Of a DNA stretch of 64,000 nt, positions 17,103 to 49,795 are shown piece after piece. The stretch's first letter is position 1. Every line of letters starts with the position of its first letter. Where the stretch lies: positions 248,001 through 312,000 of the forward strand of contig NW_027191413.1 in assembly GCF_041146345.1 (NCBI RefSeq). The letters are read 5' to 3'. The notes beneath the pieces are model-generated. The model had not been told where the DNA came from. It saw only the letters and a program-made list of their open reading frames with translations, and ran no database searches. Source of the DNA: Neodothiora populina. Taxonomy: Eukaryota. Both the position numbers and the translations under genes were made by a program.

Positions 17103-17814
17103 AGTCTCTTCTGATCTGCAATGGGCGGAACGTGGTCAGGGTAGCCAGATGGAAATGCATGATCGGCATTGGAGTTGAACTATACCCACCTGCTAGTATG
17201 ATACATACATTACTTCTGTACACAAAAACACAAATCAACGAGAACAATAATCTCCCGCATCATGCTCCCGAATCGTGATCACTCCATAGACAATCTCCAA
17301 TTGGTGGGATATCAATTTCAGAGAACAAGGACACAGTAGCGCGCGGCAAACTATGTGAATTGCGCCGACCTTCCTGCATATCGGCTTTGATCGCTGCGTT
17401 TCGGAAGCCTAGTAACCCTGGCCATTGCAGCCACGGCGCGTATATGATATGCAGGGTAGGTCGACTGTTGCGTTGGCGGTTCGATTATATTGCTTGTGGA
17501 GATTTCGGCTTGTATTGGACTCGATGAAAGCGGCTGTTGAGGACTGTGACTGATGTTCATGGGCGCTGTGGCGTGCGTTCGGTGGTTTTGGTCTTCGGCA
17601 TGGCTATCAGGAGAGAGGTCTGGTCTGGTCTAGGAGATCAATGTCACTTTGGACTTGCTATGGTCTATTCCCGAGTACATGCAGCCAAATGTGAATATCG
17701 AATGGGTACAAAAGTGTATATTGTCCAAGTATAAGAACTATATTGCCCTTCGGCGTCTTGACAAGCTAATCTAGCCAGCGATCGGATACAACATCGCATC
17801 GAGCAGCCAACGAT

Positions 17815-20097
17815 ATGCCACGCGAGAGGGATATCCCAAGGCCCACGTCTCGAGAGGGGTTTGGCGTAGCGATCCTATGTGCTCTTCCTAGAGAGGCATC
17901 TGCCGTGCATGCCATTTTCGATGAAATCTACGACAATCGGTTCGACTCCTATGGCAAGCAAGCTGGGGACACAAATACTTACACCACTGGGCGAATTGGT
18001 CAACACCATGTAGCCCTGGCGCATATGCCAGGCATGGGCGTGGTGAGTGCTGCAATCGTGGCTACAGGTATGGCCATCAGTTTTCCGAAAATCAATCTCT
18101 GCCTGATTGTGGGCATCTGTGGCGGAGTACCATATACCCCAGATGGGAAAGAGGTCGTTCTCGGCGATGTTGTTATCAGCAGCTCTGTGATTCATTATGA
18201 CTTTGGCAGACAGTATCCAGACGTATTCGTCCGAAAGACGGACGTCAAAGACGTCCTCCGGCCGCCGAACCCTGCTATACGTGGATTTATCAAGACGATT
18301 CAAGGCCGCAGAGGACGACTGCAATTGCAGAAGAAGCTCTTCAGATATCTCAGAGAGATACAATCGCATCCAGGGACCGATGCACGATACCCTGGCGTGA
18401 GGCATGACAGGCTTCACAAGGCCTCCTATCGACACAAACACCGTGGAGTCGCATCAGCAACCAGCTGTGTATGTGCGAGATGTAAGTCCAGCAAAGACCC
18501 CGTCTGCGAAGATGCCTTGAGCAGTGATTGCACCACCATTGGGTGCAGAAGACATTTGCTTTTGCGTGAGAGACTCAAGTCAAGGTCTCCTAGGCCGTCT
18601 GTACACGTCGGAATCATTGCATCAGCGAATGCCGTTGTGAAGTGTGGTGAGCGCCGTGATGAGGTAGCCAAGGAACTCAATGTCATAGCATTCGAGATGG
18701 AGGGCGCAGGGGCGTGGGATAGCTTGCCCTGTGTGGTCATCAAGGGTGTATGTGACTATGCGGACAGTCACAAGAGTAAGGTCTGGCAAGGGTATGCAGC
18801 AGCAACTTCGGCGTCTTGTGCTAGAGCTTGGCTCGATCAGTGGTTTCCGTCCCATCAACAACGTGAGTGGCGTTATCTCCATCGCATCAGGATAATATCA
18901 ATCGTAGTTGGAGCTGAGCTGTTGACTGATTTTGTATCAGCCGACCGACAAGACACGGCACATTTTGTGGTCCCATTTGCACGGGATATCGGCTTTGTAG
19001 AGCGTCTTTATCATTCCAGTAGATTTCAACAGATTAATCTCGAAAATGGCACTTTGTCAGCGCATACCCCAAATATGGCGCTTTTTGGACTTGGAGGCAG
19101 CGGCAAGACGTCTTTGGCTCTTGAGTTATCGTACCGTTCCAGGATCGACTGTCCATTACGCTCTGTCTTCTGGATGAATGCATCAAGTGCGGCGACGTTT
19201 GAAGACTCGTGTCGAGTCATAGGACGCCATTTACATCTACTTGGGAGCTCTGAAGAAGGTCAGGACTCGAAAAGACTTATAAAGCAACATCTGAGCAAGA
19301 ATTGGGAGAATGGCTGGCTAATGATCTTGGACGGCGTGGACGACACTGAAGATTGGATGATGAACCCTGATGGTAGCAAACACTACCTTTGGGAGTATCT
19401 TCCTAATAACAAACACGGTCGTATGATCGTGACTACTCGCGATAGACAGATTGCCGTTAAGTTCGCATCTAAAGATGTGGTGGAAGTTGAGCCACTGGAT
19501 TATGATACGTCCAGCCATCTACTGCAAGAACGACTTATACAGAAAGATGCGTTGGGTGACCAGGAGTGCACCGTCGCCCTTCTAGGGAGATTGGGTTCTC
19601 TGCCTCTGGCAATCGTCCAGGCAGCTACTTACATGAACATCAACGACATTAGTCTGTCTCAATACCTGTCGCTTCTGGAGGAATCGGACGAAAGCTTGGT
19701 AGAGATGCTTGCAGAAGACTTTGATGATGAACGGAGATATCAACATCAACGCAACCCCGTCATGGAGACGTGGGAAGAAACCTTCGAATACATTCGGAGG
19801 CGCAACATTTTAGCATCCGACTATCTCTGCATGCTGTCCTGTGTAGAGCCCAAACTGGTCTCTCCGGACCTTCTCCCGCTCGCCCAGTCGAGAAAGAAGC
19901 ATCTTGAAGCTCTCGCATGCCTTCGAGCTTTGTCAATGATTCACAAGCAAGAAGATGGTATATTTCAGATCCATCCATTAGTCCGCCTCGCGGTCCGGCG
20001 CTGGTTGAGCAAGAAAAATGCTCTTGGAGATGTCTTGAAGAGCGTTTCAGCTCGATTCGGTCAAGGTGTGTCAAATACTGAACTTCAGGTCGAGTAA
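17815..20097 (+). CDS. NLR-like protein: PNP_UDP (purine/uridine phosphorylase) effector domain + NB-ARC + winged helix; no repeat domain visible
   Basis: PNP motifs VAILCALPRE, LIVGICGG, LGDVVIS, FEMEGAG, IKGVCDYADSHK; Walker A GLGGSGKT; Walker B WLMILDGVDD; VTTRD; LPLAIVQAA; HPLVRL. Probable 78-nt intron at 18863-18940. Confidence 0.85.
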   Translation: MPRERDIPRPTSREGFGVAILCALPREASAVHAIFDEIYDNRFDSYGKQAGDTNTYTTGRIGQHHVALAHMPGMGVVSAAIVATGMAISFPKINLCLIVGICGGVPYTPDGKEVVLGDVVISSSVIHYDFGRQYPDVFVRKTDVKDVLRPPNPAIRGFIKTIQGRRGRLQLQKKLFRYLREIQSHPGTDARYPGVRHDRLHKASYRHKHRGVASATSCVCARCKSSKDPVCEDALSSDCTTIGCRRHLLLRERLKSRSPRPSVHVGIIASANAVVKCGERRDEVAKELNVIAFEMEGAGAWDSLPCVVIKGVCDYADSHKSKVWQGYAAATSASCARAWLDQWFPSHQQREWRYLHRIRIISIVVGAELLTDFVSADRQDTAHFVVPFARDIGFVERLYHSSRFQQINLENGTLSAHTPNMALFGLGGSGKTSLALELSYRSRIDCPLRSVFWMNASSAATFEDSCRVIGRHLHLLGSSEEGQDSKRLIKQHLSKNWENGWLMILDGVDDTEDWMMNPDGSKHYLWEYLPNNKHGRMIVTTRDRQIAVKFASKDVVEVEPLDYDTSSHLLQERLIQKDALGDQECTVALLGRLGSLPLAIVQAATYMNINDISLSQYLSLLEESDESLVEMLAEDFDDERRYQHQRNPVMETWEETFEYIRRRNILASDYLCMLSCVEPKLVSPDLLPLAQSRKKHLEALACLRALSMIHKQEDGIFQIHPLVRLAVRRWLSKKNALGDVLKSVSARFGQGVSNTELQVE

Positions 20098-21021: not shown

Positions 21022-22940
21022 ATGTCGGGAGAAGCAGCTGGTTATTACCAGATGGGCGACAAGAACTATGCGCCCCCGCCAGGCGGTCCCCCCCAACAAG
21101 CCTACCAGCAACCGCAGTCATACCAACAACAGCAGCAATACCAGCAGTATCAACAAAACCAACAGTACCAACAAAACAGTCAGCAAGAGCAGCAATATGC
21201 GCAAGCTCCACCAAACTATGGCAAGCAAAATTATGGACCCGCACCTGAAGCCTTCAGTGGAGGAGACAAGCCCACATTCGATCAGGCATTCAAGGTTGAC
21301 AAGCCCAAGTTCAACGACTGGTGGGCTGGCGTGCTGCTTCTAGCTGTGTTTGCTGGATATGTTGCAGTTTCTGGCATATCCATACAAGGTTACGGTATAT
21401 ATGATGTGTCGAGTAACAAGTTAGAGTACTTGCTGATGTGCTTGTATAGCTGCGACCAAAGGTTTCAACGGCGGTGGAATCTACGACAGCAACAACGACT
21501 TCGGCCTTGACACCAACACGCTGGTGTTGTTTGTCTTCTGTCTCTGCGTAGCATTGCTCTTCAGTTATGCATACGTTTGGGGTGCGAGGGTATTCACCAA
21601 GGTGAGACTTCCATGTTAGTAGAACAAAGTCCAAGCAGTATACTGACATTATCAAGCAATTCATTTGGATTACTGGTATCCTGCATATTGTCTTCGGCTT
21701 CGTCACCGCAATCTACATGTTGTCCAGGAAATATTGGTCCGGAGGCATCGTGTTCCTCATATTCTCGATCTTCACTGTCATCTGCTTCATCAGTTGGATC
21801 CCAAGGATTCCTTTCAGTGTGGTCATGCTGCAGACTAGCATTGATGTCTCGAAGCGCTTCGGTCATGTCTACCTTGTCTCTCTTATCGGAGGAATCATCG
21901 CCACCGCCTTTGGTGCATGGTTTTCTGTGACCATGGTCGCAGTCTACGTCAAATATGAACCAGGGCAGAATCCGGCATGCTCAACTGGGGTTGGCGGCTG
22001 TAGCTCCGCCAAAGTCATCGGCTTGCTTGTTTTTATCACCTTCGCCATGTATTGGATCACCGAGTGGTTGAAGAACACAATCCACGTCACCATTTCCGGT
22101 GTCTATGGTTCTTGGTACTTTTGCAGCAACAACATGCCCAAGGGGGTGACTCGCGGAGCAGCCCGTCGTGCTCTGACCTACAGTTTCGGTAGTATTAGTT
22201 TTGGAAGCCTTATCGTGGCAATCATCAATATGCTCAGACAGGCATGCAGCATCGCTCGTCAGCAAGAAGCGAACAACGGCAACATTGCAGCCGACATTGC
22301 GCTCTGCTTGTTGCAGTGTCTCATAGGCATTCTGGACTGGGCGGTGCAATTCATCAACCGCTATGCCTTCAGCTACATCGCCTTGTACGGCAAAGGCTAC
22401 ATCCCTGCCGCCAAGTCAACCTGGACGTGAGTCATTTCCTGTCACGTGTTGTGATGTAAGCTGACATGTCAACAGGCTCATAAAGGACCGAGGAATCGAC
22501 GCACTCGTCAACGAATGTCTGATCGGCCCGGTACTGACGATGGGTGCATCCTTCGTGGGATACGCCTGTGCTTTGCTCGCCTACCTTTATCTCATCTTCA
22601 CCTCACCAGCATATGTGAGTCTTGCCATGCCTTTCGAGAGCTTGTGATGGTCTCCAGCTGACAGTCCACAGAACCAAAATGGCGACTATACACCGGTCGT
22701 GGTGGCCTTTGCTTTCCTGATTGGCTTGCAGATATGTCAGATCTTCACCACTCCTATCTCAAGTGGCATTGACACCATTTTTGTCGCGGCCGCCTTTGAC
22801 CCAGAAGTTATGGTAAGTAGCCGATGACAGCATTGACAATCGAACGGAAGGCCTAATGTTTACAGATCCGAGAGCACCCTGAACTGTACGCGCGAATGGT
22901 GCAGACATACCCGCACGTACAGCAAGCCATTCATGCTTGA
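21022..22940 (+). CDS. PNS1: PNS1 / choline transporter-like (CTL) membrane protein; multi-exon
   Basis: KPTFDQAFKVDKPKFNDWWAG, TYSFGSISFGSLIVA, NRYAFSYIALYGKGYIPAAK, KDRGIDALVNECLIG, SSGIDTIFVA; ends YPHVQQAIHA*. Confidence 0.9.
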
Positions 22941-24072: not shown

Positions 24073-25305
24073 ATGTCGAACTTGAAGGCAGTACATTTCG
24101 GAGGCGGCAACATCGGTAGAGGTGGGTAGTATTCAAGAGATATATGAGTAGATATAAAGGATCTGGCTGAGTTTCCATTTATAGGTTTCGTTGCCGAGTT
24201 CCTGCACAAGTCAGGATATGAGGTGGTCTTTGTTGATGTCATGGACAAGATCATCGAGGCTCTACAAACAACGAAATCGTACACTGTCACGGAGATAAGC
24301 GACGATGGCGAGAGCTCTTCCACGATTGACAACTACCGCGCGATAAACAGCAAGAACGAAGAGGGTAAAGTTGTGGAAGAGATTGCATCAGCAGATGTTG
24401 TCACCTGCGCAGTCGGACCCAACATCCTGAAGTTCATTGCCCCAGTCATTGCAAAGGGTATCGAGACCCGCAGCAAGTCAACGCCTCTTTCAGTTATTGC
24501 ATGTGAGAATGCTATTGGTGCAACCGACACTCTACGCGGCTTCATCGAGGGCAAGTTGTCAGACAGCACCAAGTCTGCTATCAAGGACAAGGCTCGCTTC
24601 GCGAACAGTGCTATCGATCGCATTGTACCTATGCAAGCTGCCGACGCCGGTCTAAACGTCACGATTGAGAAGTTCTACGAGTGGTGCGTTGAGAAGAAGC
24701 CTTTTGCTCCCAACAACCCACCACCGATCGAGGGTGTTCACTACGTCTCGGACCTCACTCCTTACATCGAGCGCAAGCTCTTCACCGTCAACACTGGTCA
24801 CGCAACTGCTGCCTACTTCGGACACCAACGTGGCAAGCAATACATTCACGAGGTGCTAGGAGACAAGGAGCTTCACGACATTGTGCGTGCAACATTGGCC
24901 GAGACTGCTCACCTTGTTGTCGATCGTCACGACATCAGCGCCGAGGAGCAACAAGACTACGTCAACAAGATTGTCAAGCGTATCTCCAATCCTGTGCTCA
25001 AGGACAATGTCGAGCGTGTCGGTCGTGCCCCACTACGCAAGCTTAGCAGGAAGGAGAGATTCATCGGTCCCGCCGCACATCTCGCTGAGATGGGCGCAAG
25101 CTGTGACAACCTGTTAAAGGCTGTCGAGATGGCCCTTCGCTTCCAGAACATCGAGGGCGACGAAGAGTCTGAAGAGCTCGCCAGAATCCTCGAAGAGAAC
25201 GATGCCGAAACCGCGACGGAAAAGATTACCAGTCTTGAGAAGAGCCATCCTCTATTCGAGAAGGTTGCCGCTATTGTCAAGAAGGTCCAAAATGACACCA
25301 AGTGA
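24073..25305 (+). CDS. mpdA: Mannitol-1-phosphate 5-dehydrogenase; exons 24073-24121, 24185-25305
   Basis: [19 protein letters not shown] Rossmann motif, [59 protein letters not shown]. Confidence 0.95.
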
Positions 25306-26624
25306 CTACATGGCGGTGCGAGCCAAGGCAAGGACAACGATAAGCACAGCAAAGGAAAGCTATGATCTCAGGCCTTGATGGTATCCGGTCATGGTATTTC
25401 TGCCACTTGTGGAGTCCACTTTTCTCCTTTCTTTGTCTATTATATCGAGCATTGAGCATACCAGGGTCTCTTCTTTATTTACTGCGAGGCGAACCAGGAG
25501 CAAAGCAACGAACGGGAATGCATGCATGCCAATACAGCGGTGCGGGTACGGCGAAAGGATGAGAGAAAGACTAACACGAGACACTCCATGACCCATGATG
25601 GTTTGATGTTTTTACTCGATCACGACAGCGATGTTTTCCTTTTTTTCAATTCCTTACTACATTTCGAGTGTAAAAACTACTTTAGCCTTTTTACTGATTT
25701 GATCCGCTGTTGCCGAGCAGCAACAGCAGCAGTCGGTCTCTTTTATTTACCGAGAATGAAACGAAATACAAATTGAAACCATAATCCATCTTATGCCCAA
25801 TGAAGACATACAGAGCAGTATAAGCTATCGATGAACCTACGACAACCTAGACAAATAGTAAGGATTCTTGCACCACCGACCAGAAGCACAAGTAGAAGGA
25901 GTAGTATATGTAACTTCAATCTTGTCGTTCCCAATCTAGTGAAAAAGTGTATGCACAAGAAAGAAAAGAGGGAAGTGGGAACCCCAAGGTACTGTAGCTT
26001 AGCAGACGACTAGAAAAGACAAGATCAATAGGTCGATGGAGGGTACTGTAGATGGCTAGGTATGACTTCCCTCCTGCACAAGACCCGTACAGTATGTGAC
26101 TAGCTATGTAGCTAGGTAGCAAGCTGTGGAGCTAGCATTTCAGATGAAGAAACGACGACTAGATGGAGGATTTCAGATGCAGAAAAGAGATATGTATAGA
26201 GAAATTGAAAAGAGAAAACAAGAGTACCCTCTTCAGTGATTCCACTTATTGTTGTATCTACCGAAAGGAACAGGGGAGTAGAGATTGGGTAATCCTTCTT
26301 CACTTGTTCGTCCTCGTGCTCCTGCTCGCCAACTTCATCCTCTGCACGTCCTTTCACTTGCGGGTGAAGGAACGAAAATTCGAAGAGAAGAAGACGGAAA
26401 AGGGAAAGGAAAAACAGTTACCTCGCTGTCCAATCTTGACGCCATGCCTGAATCTGAACCTTGGTCCTGGGATATATGCAAGAAAACAATAACCTGGTTA
26501 CGGAAGATATATAGACGCAAATATGAAAATCAAAGCAGAAAGAATGGAAAAGAATGGATACAGAAGATGGATATATAAACGATGTGTGTGGAATATGAAG
26601 ATTTATAAACAAGCGTCAATGAAA

Positions 26625-26789: not shown

Positions 26790-29168
26790 TCACCTCATTT
26801 CGATGGAGGGAAACGCCATTCTCGATCGGATATTGATTCCAATCTCGAAGATGCCTTCTTCACATGCAGCCCAGAGTGTGCGTCCGTCGACACTCATTGC
26901 CAGTCCGGCGGTCCGGACGCCAATGTTCACATCTCGGGATCCGGCGCCTGCGATTCGGCGATTGTATAGTATTTCTGCGTATTCGTTATATGTTGCGCCG
27001 CTACTGGCCCCATTGTTGGTATTGCTGTTGTTCGTAGCGAGATTGCGGGATGACGGTGCGATGAGGCCACGGAGTGTAGTAAACGAGTCATAGAGGGAGT
27101 CCGCTGCCGTCGGACCACCGAACTCTTGTCGCACGCTTCGGAGACGATCGCGTTGCGCAGCAAGGCGTCGGAACTGCTGTTCCCGGTTCGCCGAGGCTCG
27201 ATATGCTGCCGTGTCGGCGTTGGTGTTGGTATTGGTCGATGGTTCAGTCGAACGAGGAGATTCAAATAGTGGACCGCGCGCCAGGAATGTATTACTGCGG
27301 CTGTCAGCCGAGTCAATTCGCCAGGGATTATCTTCCTCCGGTTCTGGGGTTGAATTCGAAGGGATCGTCGCTGCACGGGTAGCGTGCGGTGGGGGCGCCA
27401 GTATCGCTCGACGACGTCTTTGCGATGCCGTGTTGTCCTGGTCTCGTAGACGAAGGTATTCCTGTATAGAGTGCAGCGGCGGCAATGTATTGTCTCCAGC
27501 TAGCCTTTCCGAAGCGGCGGCGTCATTCCGCTGCGAGGTGCGTGATAATTCAGGAAATGCTGCATAAGGGTCGTTGTGATTGACCAGAACGTCACTAGAA
27601 GGGCGCGGTTCACTAGAGTTCCGGCTTGGGGAGCGATTCCTGTTCGCGAACAGACCTGCAGTCGTATAATTTATCGAGCGAGCCGAGAAGCCGAGAGATC
27701 GAGCTTCCTCTCTCTGTCTCCCCACCCGTAAGGATTCCAGGATTTGTTGCTCCCGGGCCGTGAGACCATGTGGGTCATCTGCCAACGCAGAAGTGTCGGC
27801 GAGAGACGGAAAGTCACGGCGCAGATTCTGTTGCTGTCTAATCAGCTCACGAGCTGCCAAAGCTTCTGCCGCATATCCAGATGCAGCCGAGTCGCCAAGG
27901 CCCTCTCGAGTATGGTTCATAAGTGCGTCTTCGAGATCCAGGAGTCGTCTTTGATGGTCGAGTGTTCCTCCGTCGTTTGACACATCTTCGACGGTGATTT
28001 TTGCGAGACCGTCCTCGTCAGGCTTTAGCTCGATGGTTTGTTTGGTGCGGAGGCCGGCGCGCAAGTCTGCAATGCATACACGACCTTGATCTTCAGCCCA
28101 TATAAGGAGGTCCCAAGGCTCCGGTGAGAACATGATGGTGCGGACTGCTCCAGGATGAAGATGTGCAGCTATGTTCGGTCGCGTTGATGGAACGGTAGCA
28201 ACAATAGCATCTTCGCCCTCCTCCGAGTCGCAGTACTGAAAAAGCTGCGTGTCGAAGACGCTAATGTGGCCACCTTCAGAGCCGACTGCGACCAGATGAC
28301 CGCTAGGCGACCATGCCGTGGTAAAATAGCCCGGTACTTGTGAAGAATCCCGCGAGAGAGGTTCGGATCTCAGATGCACAACATTTGCTGTCTCCCATGT
28401 GACTGCGCCCGTGTTCAGTCGATTGTGAGGCTTAGGGATCTGCGGCGGTGTCTGCTGGAGAACTCTAGTGTAGAAAAACGCCTGGTTAGAGTCTCCCACG
28501 GCAACTAGTGAGCGGCCATCGGGAGATATCGAGGCGTGATTCATCGGAAAGGGCAGCTCCATGCAGGCTGTCTCCGTTGCGTGCTGTAGAGAATAGACTC
28601 GCACTGTCCTGTCATTGTTTGTCAAGACGGCGACAACGTCATAGAGATGGGCTTCCTCATCTTGAATGTGATGTATGGATATCGAGTTCACAATTTCTTC
28701 GCCGATTCGCTCGATCCTGACGTTGGCGGCCCTTGGTGCGACGGAGACAGGCTCCCAGTAGCCCTCGATGGGCAAGGGAAAGTCGACATCCGCATGGCGA
28801 GCAGGTCTCTGGGTTTCGAGCCTTATGATGGCAAAGTGGCCCTCGTCTTCGCCTCCCACACACACATAACCGTGGCCCGAGGCAGTGCAGCGTGCCTCAA
28901 ATGGGAGTGTCGTGAGGTGTTTCCGTTTCCTTGTGACGGTATTGAGATGATAGACTTCGTTTCCGCTGGCGTAATAGAGAGTGTCCTTTTCCGGAGAAGA
29001 TATGTAGTGTCGCAGTTGCCAATGACTGACGGGGATCTTTACGGGAATGAATGTCTTGTTGGCATGTGCAAGTCTGTCGGTTTCTGAGAAGCTGCGGTTG
29101 AGGTCAGCGTCATTCGGCTTTCACTTTGACAAGAATAACAAGACTCACAAGAAGCTATCGATGGCCAT
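26790..29168 (-). CDS. DUF2415-type WD40-like beta-propeller protein with low-complexity C-terminal half; 2 exons
   Basis: HWQLRHYI, LPFEARC, IGEEIVNSI, VLTNNDRTVRVYSL, MNHASISPDGRSLVAVGD, DLLIWAEDQGRVCIADLR, TAGLAMSVDGRTLWAACEEGI. ATG at 29168 is followed by a short GTGAGT..CAG intron. Confidence 0.75.
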
Positions 29169-47297: not shown

Positions 47298-49795
47298 GAT
47301 GGCGGTAGGGAGGGAGGAGGTCGCTGGTAAGCCCCCCACCTGTTTACTGGGGACGCTGAGAGGCGATGGTGGTGTGTTTGTTGTTGGAAATCCGTAGTCG
47401 ATTAGCCGCTGTCAGGCATAGGAAGAAGTGGAAAACGAGGTGACTGTGGTGACCGGGGGTGACTTGGATGTCGAGGCTCGAGTGTCGAGTGTAGAGCGTC
47501 TCACGTGGCAGACGTCAGGCGTTGTCGTGACTGAGCCGAGATGATCCAAGTGTGTGGATGGTCTAGACAGACTTTGGCTTTGTTCGACAGGCAGAGTGGT
47601 GACGGGATGCTTGAGCGATGTGATGCAATGTGTGATGTGATGCGAATGCGCCTGAATGGAAACAAATACCACGGGCGAGATGAGGCGGATACAGATGATG
47701 CGCAGAGAGATACGGATTCAATTAAGAGAAGAAAGAATGTCGAAAGGCAAAGAGAATCAGCTGGTTGGATGTGGTGATGACGGTGACGATGATGGTAAAT
47801 GATGAAGATGAAGATAGCAACAGCGACAACAGCAGTGGTGACAAGTCCGAGTCAAGTCGGTGGATAAAAGCGACGAATGACTGATGTCGATGTTTCAGAA
47901 GCAGCTACCCGCAACTAAAAGGCGGAGATAATGTGATATAAGGTACGATAGAGACTACCTCGTTAGGGTCAAATCGGTCACTCGTATCTTGTTAGACCGT
48001 ATCGTCAAAGAAACCCTATTCAAATGCTATCTCGAAAGCATCTTACAGGGGAGCTTCGGACATGGCAAGAGGGCAGACCAGGGAGAGGAGGAGAGTGTAT
48101 ACAAGACACAAACAAAGACGACAAGGCGGCAGTAGGAAGGGCTGTCTCGATATGCTCTGATCCGATCTGATCTGATTTACTTAGGTAGGGACAAGAAGAG
48201 CTGCTGGGACAGGCACTCGTGGATAACCAGGGAGAGGAAGAAGGTATACAGCAGTAGTAGTAGAAGGCAAGACACAGGGGCTTACAGGTCGCAGGTTGCA
48301 CAACTCCAAAGATCAGGTACTCTACGCCGCCTACGCCGCAGTGAGAGACGAAGCTACCTTGAGGTGGAAGGCAAGTGAAGGCTATCGGGAAAGCTTTGGG
48401 ATGGGACGCCGTGTGAACCTTAATCCTTATCCTGGCTGCCGATAAGAGTCAGAGTGCAGAGCCTCTCTCTGGCTCTCTCTCCCTCTCTGTGACTGACAGT
48501 CATTCATCATCGGTCCCCTTCTTGCGTGCTATTAGCTAATCCACACTCGTACTGACAAATGCAGGAGAAACCCCAGCTCTAGAATCGTTTCCTTCCACCT
48601 AGGTCATTCTCAGGGTGGGAAAACAATTAGTCAGTCCGAGTCTTGTCTCGAGGCTTCGTCCGTCTCTAGTGGTCGCGTGCATGTGGCAAGTCGTCGTCCG
48701 ACTCGCGAGAAGGGCAGGCAGCACAGGGCAAGCACACACCAACGATGGGACCTAACCAAGCACATGATCGTCATCGAGGGAAGAGGGGACAGAGGGAGGG
48801 GACAGAGGGAGGGTTCAATCAACCTAAGTCTTATCAGCAGGACCCTGGAGACACACGAAATGCTTATCTGAACCCTCGCGCGCGTCTGCATGTCGTATGT
48901 CTCTACTACTACTACTGCACATATGACAGTAATACCAACAGACAGTAGATGAGTCGTTAGCCTTGCTGTGCTGTGTTGTACTGTGCTGTGCCGCCCTCGA
49001 CCCAGAAGCGCCGGCCAAGCCGCCCGTCAATATAGATCACGCTGGGAGTGAAATGCAATCTCGCTGGCGAGAAACAAAGCTGTCCTGCAAGCTTATCTAC
49101 CCAGCCTCGAGCCAGCTTAGACATGTTTTCAAAGCCTATGGTATGATAAAACTCACGTATACAACGAAACGCAGGACGCCTGCTCGTCTTCTGAAGCCAG
49201 ACCAGACCAGAAATGCGGGGAAATGGTGAGTTGTTTTTTGGAAGGGAACACTGATAACGGAGCTCTCCCCGCGGCCTTGCTTTGCCTTAGCTGCCTAATC
49301 CGACAGCAACGACTACTCTTGCTCTCTCTCTGACCGGTGGTCTTGCTGCAGCTCAGACTCATGAGCGTGTGGACACATAATTGGCAGGAGCTGGGGTCGA
49401 GGGAGCAGATAGTACACATTGTTACACTCATACAGTACAGTACGCCCGATAGAGGCGGGATCCTTGCACTTTGGCTCGGATGGGGTTGTTGTCTTTCCTT
49501 TCCTCCTCTGGCTCTCTCTTATCAGTGGCTGGCTGGCTGGCTGGCTGGCTGCCTGCTTTCTGCGCGCTTGCTGCCCAAAGTCTAGTCCTGTAGGTAAGCT
49601 AAGTAGCACAACAGCAGGATCCACCTAGCCACCACCTGTCCATTCGCTTTGTGGGCCTTGCTGCATCCTCTGCCGGAGGAGAGACGCCGAACGCGCCAGT
49701 CTCTGTTCGTGCCTGGCATACTCTGCAATGCAAATGCAATGCAATGCAGTGCCATGCCATACCGCCTGTTTCTGGGCTTTTTGCGTCCCCTACAC

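Follow-up and report, generated by a model that had tools for sequence, protein, structure and literature searches.

Candidate stop-codon readthrough to a peroxisomal isoform of mannitol-1-phosphate 5-dehydrogenase in Neodothiora populina, with PTS1-like extensions among its relatives

In a 64,000-nucleotide stretch of the genome of the dothideomycete Neodothiora populina (contig NW_027191413.1, positions 248,001 to 312,000 of the forward strand; hereafter the window, from whose first letter its coordinates are counted), the two-exon gene for mannitol-1-phosphate 5-dehydrogenase (M1PDH; EC 1.1.1.17) occupies 24073-25305 on the forward strand and closes with a TGA codon (25303..25305) that we propose to be leaky. 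CTA stands straight after it (25306..25308), completing the UGA CUA readthrough core, and the same frame then remains open for 19 sense codons (LHGGASQGKDNDKHSKGKL; 25306..25362) as far as a second TGA (25363..25365), which would end the readthrough product. By translation and by a published pattern, the last three of these codons, GGA AAG CTA (25354..25362), would supply the terminal tripeptide GKL as a candidate weak type 1 peroxisomal targeting signal (PTS1). Comparison of orthologous loci shows a conserved, predicted coding extension with a PTS1 end behind TGA across many relatives, and we consider it probable that low-level UGA readthrough exposes a weak PTS1 in N. populina, giving a minor peroxisomal isoform of M1PDH.

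The mechanism we propose has few steps. Most ribosomes would stop at the UGA (25303-25305) and release the 389-residue cytosolic, NAD(H)-dependent enzyme, and a small share, meeting in UGA followed by CUA a weak termination context, would insert a near-cognate amino acid and continue. Readthrough would thereby add a flexible, basic and polar tail of 20 residues ending in -GKL, which Pex5 may bind as a weak PTS1, and a minor pool of the enzyme would enter peroxisomes. There it might convert fructose-6-phosphate and NADH to mannitol-1-phosphate and NAD+, beside the malate and glycerol-3-phosphate shuttles; a peroxisomal redox shuttle of this kind fits the enzyme class and is offered as speculation.

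Extensions behind the stop in orthologous loci

Metagenome contigs were scanned with an alignment of 40 fungal M1PDH proteins, yielding 295 confirmed stretches of which the best 80 were taken as loci. The first stop could be read in 79 of these, L015 being left out because it runs off the end of its contig. Tail ends were scored with the regular expression for PTS1 that Stiebler 2014 (PMC4207609) gives in its Methods; it was left unchanged and takes in GKL, VKL, AKL, SKL, TKL, ERL, SRL and SSL. The initial annotation had set as a test, beforehand, that orthologues should share TGA together with an in-frame PTS1-like end, and the loci bear this out: an in-frame extension with a PTS1 tripeptide at its end follows the stop in 29 of the 36 TGA loci without a native PTS1, and in none of the 41 loci that stop at TAA or TAG. 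As controls, the +1 and +2 frames downstream of these stops gave a PTS1 end in 0 of 142 cases, and later downstream segments in frame 0 in 7 of 723. When identical combinations of C-terminus and extension were collapsed, 21 of 28 TGA loci without a native PTS1 still matched, against 0 of 37 others. L052 was counted throughout as a non-matching locus; it groups with the Pleosporales, yet shares an identical C-terminus and 3' flank with the Capnodiales-like L016, and it is probably a chimeric assembly.

Seven TGA loci fall outside the pattern. L010, L012, L060 and L073 have no tail, and the other three are near misses, ending in EKL (L024), GRL (L033) and SRI (L067). With a looser definition of the end, [KR][LIM], the contrast becomes 32 of 36 TGA loci against 2 of 41 TAA/TAG loci, the two exceptions being an identical pair (L064/L065) with the spliced terminal intron of Eurotiales; the corresponding Fisher P of 2e-12 overstates the case, because relatedness makes the loci non-independent. 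All 32 loci with an x-[KR]-[LI] extension stop at TGA. Behind conserved TGA stops the tails end in GKL, AKL, SRL, VKL or ERL, and GKL is the commonest, closing 10 of the 25 unique extensions.

The extensions are of 4, 6, 9, 10, 12, 16 and 17 codons, and of 19 in the window, and they are largely unalignable between clades, while all are in frame and close with an x-[KR]-L/I end. Within clades they can be compared directly. The extensions of L009 and L011 differ by a single 3-nt indel, that is, by one whole codon, and the Aureobasidium-like loci keep the residues G-L-E-R-L across six synonymous differences and no replacements. Among 14 loci of Pleosporales type with a six-codon extension, pairwise identity is 0.93, 0.71 and 0.93 at codon positions 1 and 2 and 0.67, 0.36 and 0.50 at position 3, and over the 24 nt past the second stop it is 0.29, or about random. 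Across the 32 loci the last codon is CTC, CTT, CTG, TTG or ATT, the penultimate one is any of seven Lys/Arg codons, and the second stop is TGA in 15, TAG in nine and TAA in eight. Ten short, transcript-like contigs of relatives (<2.1 kb) keep the in-frame TGA together with 81-309 nt behind it. Judged by these comparisons, the extensions evolve codon by codon and their conservation is lost past the second stop.

Loci were assigned to lineages by a quick tree (106 rows, named anchors included), together with the C-terminal ends of database proteins. Conservation of the precise TGA CTA context, which had also been anticipated, proves narrower than that of the stop and its tail: TGA plus a tail is conserved, while the exact TGA CTA occurs in only eight loci, all Dothideales/Myriangiales-like relatives on the window's own side of the tree, with one further case of CTC. 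Six of the eight are Aureobasidium-like with tails ending in GLERL (L001-3, L009, L011, L018), L040 ends in RAKL and L048 in VRGKL. Further VRGKL-ending tails on this side stand behind TGA CGA (L036-38), and L017, the locus with TGA CTC, ends in ELAKL. Canonical AKL or SRL tails are found in L017, L040, L057, L069 and L077.

The Pleosporales use other contexts. In their main clade, whose native ends (...GGS or ...ESS) match those of Plenodomus, Phaeosphaeriaceae, Ampelomyces, Paraphoma and Cucurbitaria, the stop lies within AGC TGA ATA TCC and is followed by tails of the ISAGKL type. Over the 14 loci compared for this 12-mer (L020, L021, L023-L026, L030, L033, L034, L039, L041, L049, L057 and L068), AGC is present in 14, ATA in 12 and TCC in nine, synonymous positions included. 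ATA is rarely used as an isoleucine codon in fungi. Such conservation hints at a lineage-specific readthrough context unlike UGA CUA. Inside this clade tails have also been lost, with TAG where TGA stood (L042/L044 and L054). A sister clade with Ascochyta, Boeremia, Epicoccum, Curvularia and others carries a native -SSL or -ASL, and a basal group, whose native ends match Kalmusia, Didymosphaeria and Lentithecium, has TGA AGG or TGA GGG followed by RSRL, GSRL or RSRI. Capnodiales/Mycosphaerellales-like loci, placed near Zymoseptoria, Baudoinia and Dothistroma, mostly stop at TAG or TAA and are tailless, and one small clade among them (L006, L014) has a native -SKL. Native SSL closes six loci, and among the matches listed, which comprise 226 distinct database proteins, it closes 36.

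A further arrangement is seen in Eurotiales of the Penicillium type, in which the 5' splice site of a terminal intron of 55-84 nt (AA/GTAAG, cut at the stroke) falls across the stop, here TAA or TAG. Read from their splice sites, these introns lie at 2655-2723 in L066, 2655-2709 in L074 and 2655-2738 in L064, and splicing would give the ends ...SDFK-EAGQPRI, ...EIGQPRM and ...TDRRPRI respectively. Both forms exist among Eurotiales database proteins (P0127-P0137, P0151, P0152 and others): one of 388 residues ending in K, corresponding to the unspliced form, and one of 395 ending in GQPRI, with seven extra residues. PRI closes 20 of the 120 database proteins listed, and none of the 120 fits the pattern given in the Methods of Stiebler 2014 (PMC4207609). 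The terminal intron may thus be an alternative-splicing route to a PTS1-like end, with the qualification that PRI lies outside the published pattern.

Taken across lineages, this distribution allows a broader proposal, which we put forward tentatively and regard as possible rather than probable: that M1PDH has been dually targeted since early in the Pezizomycotina, serving a peroxisomal fructose-6-phosphate/mannitol-1-phosphate NADH shuttle, and that this has been kept by three interchangeable routes. One would be UGA readthrough, which in Pleosporales would use the so far undescribed context AGC-UGA-AUA-UCC; another would be a native weak PTS1, SSL or SKL; and in the last, which gives -PRI in Penicillium and its relatives, a terminal intron with its 5' splice site across the stop codon would be spliced out or retained. 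Were it true, ancient dual targeting would tie mannitol metabolism to the mobilisation of lipid in spores and during infection.

The gene and its transcript in N. populina

By its domains and its similarity over the full length, the window gene is predicted with confidence to be a mannitol-1-phosphate 5-dehydrogenase. Exon 1 (24073..24121) opens with the ATG and breaks off after one base of the Gly17 codon, and an intron of 63 nt with GT..AG ends (24122..24184) separates it from the coding part of exon 2 (24185..25302), which carries the Rossmann and the C-terminal Mannitol_dh domain and ends in ...KKVQNDTK. The product matches PF01232 (3e-44) and PF08125 (2.4e-34), and its 389 residues agree at 100% identity with a database protein ascribed to N. 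populina (P0002). The product shares 70-100% identity with hundreds of fungal proteins that bear the name M1PDH, and among solved structures its relatives are the bacterial MtlD proteins 3h2z (E = 1.5e-77 over residues 4-378) and 5jnm (2.1e-71). Around the first stop the frame reads AAG AAG GTC CAA AAT GAC ACC AAG TGA CTA CAT; the initial annotation, which had given the end as ACC AAG TGA CTA with 19 open codons and a second TGA at 25363-25365, agrees with this letter for letter. Two of the nearest database relatives, in the class of 81-83% identity, have different native ends: P0011 finishes in ...SDTKL, hence TKL, and P0003 in ...GESK.

Evidence on the transcript comes from X2, a run of the same sample as the likely source of the window, whose kind is recorded as 'DNA?'. 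It was one of four runs read as contigs, a form blind to expression level, to rare isoforms, to strand and to the ends of transcripts. X2 behaves as RNA, because one of its contigs (961 nt, depth 933) has the first intron spliced: at the predicted intron it lacks exactly 63 nt, bounded by GT..AG, and joins 24119/24121 onto 24183/24185. Contigs cover 25039-25352 and 25381-25700 at a depth of about 1140-1190 (about 1140 for the latter), extending the remainder of the 3' untranslated region (25366..25700) at least to 25700, and depth over the coding sequence, 933-1190, is similar to that over 25381-25700. No joint near the first stop is reported in the X2 contigs. Since X2 is spliced and its cover shows no such joint, the TGA and the 19 codons behind it appear to be part of the mature messenger RNA.

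Two runs from other studies and other organisms also contain pieces of this region. X3 has a piece identical to 25347-25561 of the window at a depth of 2.6. In X4 the identical piece is 25385-25522, at a depth of 260 and with unlike flanks on both sides, and the M1PDH-coding contigs of that run are only about 85% alike to the window gene. These identical pieces of 3' untranslated region could be due to carry-over, to a shared element or to the presence of the same species in the samples.

Within the window the hexamer TGACTA occurs at 20 sites, against 24.9 expected, and is not enriched. Its count there says nothing by itself, and the case for something beyond chance is carried by the orthologues and not by the window. 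Nine TGA-CT sites in the window close open frames of at least 80 codons, and M1PDH is the only one of these with a PTS1-like extension. A second TGA CTA (48628-48633, reverse strand) closes an open frame of 131 codons, and its extension, LIVFPP, has no likeness to a PTS1. A search of 25200-26200 against Rfam returned a chance-level match to mir-10 alone (E = 0.2, under the gathering score), and a repeat search of the window found only a low-complexity, TTC-rich family and none at the M1PDH locus. Two candidate explanations of the stop were rejected. A stimulatory stem-loop after it is not indicated, since the sequence folds no better than its shuffles, and selenocysteine insertion at the TGA was discarded because fungi lack the machinery for it (Stiebler 2014, PMC4207609).

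The tail as a targeting signal and competing explanations

Several properties of the tail are consistent with import. Basic residues precede GKL at -4 (K), -6 (H) and -7 (K), no acidic residue lies between -4 and -7, and the composition of the tail is polar, being rich in G, S, N, D and K. In a structural model of the readthrough product the predicted local distance difference test (pLDDT) stays under 50 over residues 373-392, compared with 88 for the model as a whole, and the chain is predicted to be unstructured past the last helix, although low pLDDT is only weak evidence of disorder here because no alignment row covers the tail. GKL does not satisfy the strict canonical rule [SAC][KRH][LM], having G at -3, and is to that extent non-canonical, just as the initial annotation had said; it is, though, covered by the pattern of Stiebler 2014 (PMC4207609, Methods), through the term [SATPCVNG]KL. 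The same source supplies a close precedent in Idp1 of Ustilago maydis, which has a native GKL end with a PTS1 score of +1.1, is treated there as a PTS1 protein (Fig. S3), and whose GKL-ending 12-mer was put to test as a fusion to green fluorescent protein (Stiebler 2014, PMC4207609). An end with G at the same position, GNL, is cited as functional in the GAPDH of Phycomyces by a 2025 SYM paper.

Against readthrough to a peroxisomal isoform stand a number of observations, some concerning the signal and others the stop. In human cells, the change of SKL to GKL in EHHADH brought the apparent affinity for PEX5 down from 6.4 to 1.4, leaving a reporter described as 'predominantly cytosolic' with slight residual import (Chong 2019). 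Tails ending in EKL, GRL and SRI, and the PRI of Eurotiales, are outside the published pattern, and the ERL tail, while inside it, is acidic at -3. If readthrough is low and the PTS1 is weak, the peroxisomal pool would be very small, a pattern that has been reviewed for other dual-targeted dehydrogenases (2022 review). The codon after TGA is variable, being ATA in 11 of the 25 unique extensions, CTA in six and AGG, GGG, CGA, CTC, ATT, ATG or TTT in the other eight, and RNA structure was not detected behind the first stop of the window (z = -0.84; 40 of 200 shuffles fold as well). Four TGA loci, the tailless ones named above, and all 41 TAA/TAG loci are without a readthrough tail, which is therefore dispensable in many lineages. 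Finally, the nearest relatives with DNA are about 76% identical in protein and, because their tails do not align with that of the window, its 19 codons are backed by analogy only.

These difficulties bear unequally on the alternatives. One of them accepts that the extension is translated and selected, and holds that its x-[KR]-L end serves a purpose other than import, such as a signal for stability or degradation or the binding of a partner. The commonest tails are indeed weak or odd as PTS1, with GKL leading, ERL in four unique extensions, and EKL and GRL besides; GKL reporters are mostly cytosolic in the human cells of Chong 2019; and -PRI is conserved in Eurotiales outside the published pattern. 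We nonetheless think a non-peroxisomal purpose unlikely, given that canonical SRL and AKL and a native SKL occupy the same position in sister lineages, that 29 of 36 tails fit a pattern fixed beforehand by others, and that NADH dehydrogenases are a class with known readthrough PTS1 isoforms in LDHB and MDH1. Moreover, soluble cytosolic enzymes are not known to us to bear a C-terminal x-[KR]-L signal of any other kind.

It is less probable still that, whatever use relatives may make of their tails, the TGA CTA and GKL tail of N. populina are a product of chance or a decaying remnant without function. A PTS1-pattern end arises in a random frame at about 1% or less, as the controls of 0/142 and 7/723 indicate, and the window joins to its TGA the CTA common to its nearest relatives with DNA (Aureobasidium-like loci), an unbroken frame and a GKL preceded by three basic residues. 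This must be set beside the facts that the window tail is the longest and aligns with that of no relative, that the nearest compared DNA is not from a close relative, that TGACTA is not enriched in the window and that some lineages (L010, L042/L044, L054) have lost their tails. Very improbable, finally, is the joining of the tail by rare alternative splicing or some other recoding in place of stop-codon readthrough, for all that Eurotiales orthologues obtain -PRI through a terminal intron of 55-84 nt overlapping the stop, that contigs drop rare variants, and that splicing and readthrough have been interchanged between species for GAPDH and PGK (Freitag 2012, as cited). At the window stop (AAG TGA CTA) no GT fits a 5' splice site, the X2 contigs lack a joint near it, and the ten transcript-like contigs of relatives retain their in-frame TGA. 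The tail is in frame with the coding sequence, and the two stops are 18 nt apart in Pleosporales and 57 nt apart in the window. Fungal introns are far longer than 18 nt, and 57 nt would only marginally accommodate one.

Known readthrough systems and the genomic setting

Readthrough of the UGA to a PTS1 has close analogues in other organisms, and the nearest is the set of enzymes described in U. maydis, where efficient readthrough needs no more than a CUA behind the UGA, exchanging the UGA for UAA or UAG lowers it, and the first two bases past the stop mainly set its efficiency (Stiebler 2014, PMC4207609). Tpi1, Pgk1, Rpe1 and Art1 of this set resemble M1PDH in having UGA, CU(A) and a short in-frame extension with a PTS1 end (Freitag 2012; Stiebler 2014, PMC4207609). 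The resemblance extends to a cytosolic host enzyme of central metabolism and to a patchy conservation in which some species have a native or spliced PTS1. The window case differs in enzyme and in clade, being from Dothideomycetes, and in being known from sequence alone; many M1PDH relatives differ also in their non-CU context, TGA ATA TCC. Idp1 of the same fungus is likewise a dehydrogenase with GKL, but the tripeptide is native there, while in the window it would be reached by readthrough.

Among the human pair LDHB-x and MDH1-x, one tail ends in SRL. The other ends in CRL according to the supplements of Stiebler 2014 (PMC4207609), and both proteins are NAD(H)-linked cytosolic dehydrogenases with exactly TGA CTA, a PTS1 in the extension and a proposed role in peroxisomal NAD+/NADH balance (Stiebler 2014; Schueren 2014). 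Unlike the GKL of the window, their tripeptides are stronger and have been validated experimentally. The proposed shuttle is in turn reminiscent of those of Saccharomyces cerevisiae, malate/oxaloacetate with Mdh3 and glycerol-3-phosphate/dihydroxyacetone phosphate with Gpd1, in which a peroxisomal NADH-dependent dehydrogenase regenerates the NAD+ that beta-oxidation consumes, with small metabolites passing through the peroxisomal membrane (PMC9549241); we propose the same for M1PDH. However, the pair fructose-6-phosphate/mannitol-1-phosphate is pure inference, and a shuttle based on it is not described in the texts searched. Bacterial MtlD (3h2z, 5jnm) has the same family and fold with no organelle targeting, and the readthrough tail would be a fungal addition.

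The initial annotation knew of no description of readthrough to peroxisomes for this enzyme, and our search of the literature, judged in its broader part by titles and abstracts, likewise found none of a peroxisomal M1PDH, with the limit that Freitag 2012 and the microbody proteome of Penicillium chrysogenum (Kiel 2009) may contain one. Neither Stiebler 2014 with its seven supplements nor Ast 2013, Kremp 2020, the 2022 review or the 2025 SYM paper contains the word 'mannitol'. On this basis the mechanism, readthrough to a PTS1, is already known, and what would be new is M1PDH as the enzyme, the conservation across a clade and the implied shuttle.

Cryptic readthrough PTS1 are known for a handful of enzymes, to which M1PDH would add one from the fungal mannitol pathway, whose physiological role is a matter of continuing debate. 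If M1PDH has a peroxisomal pool, this would suggest a third NADH shuttle, fructose-6-phosphate/mannitol-1-phosphate, beside those of malate and glycerol-3-phosphate, and would tie mannitol metabolism to beta-oxidation in the Dothideomycetes, many of which are plant-associated or black-yeast fungi. The conserved non-CUA context of Pleosporales could inform on the signals for readthrough in fungi, and there is a lesson for annotation in that the 3' untranslated region right behind the TGA stops of metabolic genes can be coding.

The genes on either side of M1PDH have no evident tie to mannitol or to peroxisomes. Upstream, at 21606-22427 on the forward strand, is a choline-transporter-like membrane protein (PF04515, 3e-70), and downstream, at 26793-29120 on the opposite strand, a WD40/DUF2415 protein. 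Elsewhere in the window a long open frame at 17770-20094 (forward strand) combines a phosphorylase-like N-terminal domain of the PNP_UDP_1 family with an NB-ARC/NACHT domain, an architecture which we take to be typical of fungal NLR-like proteins.

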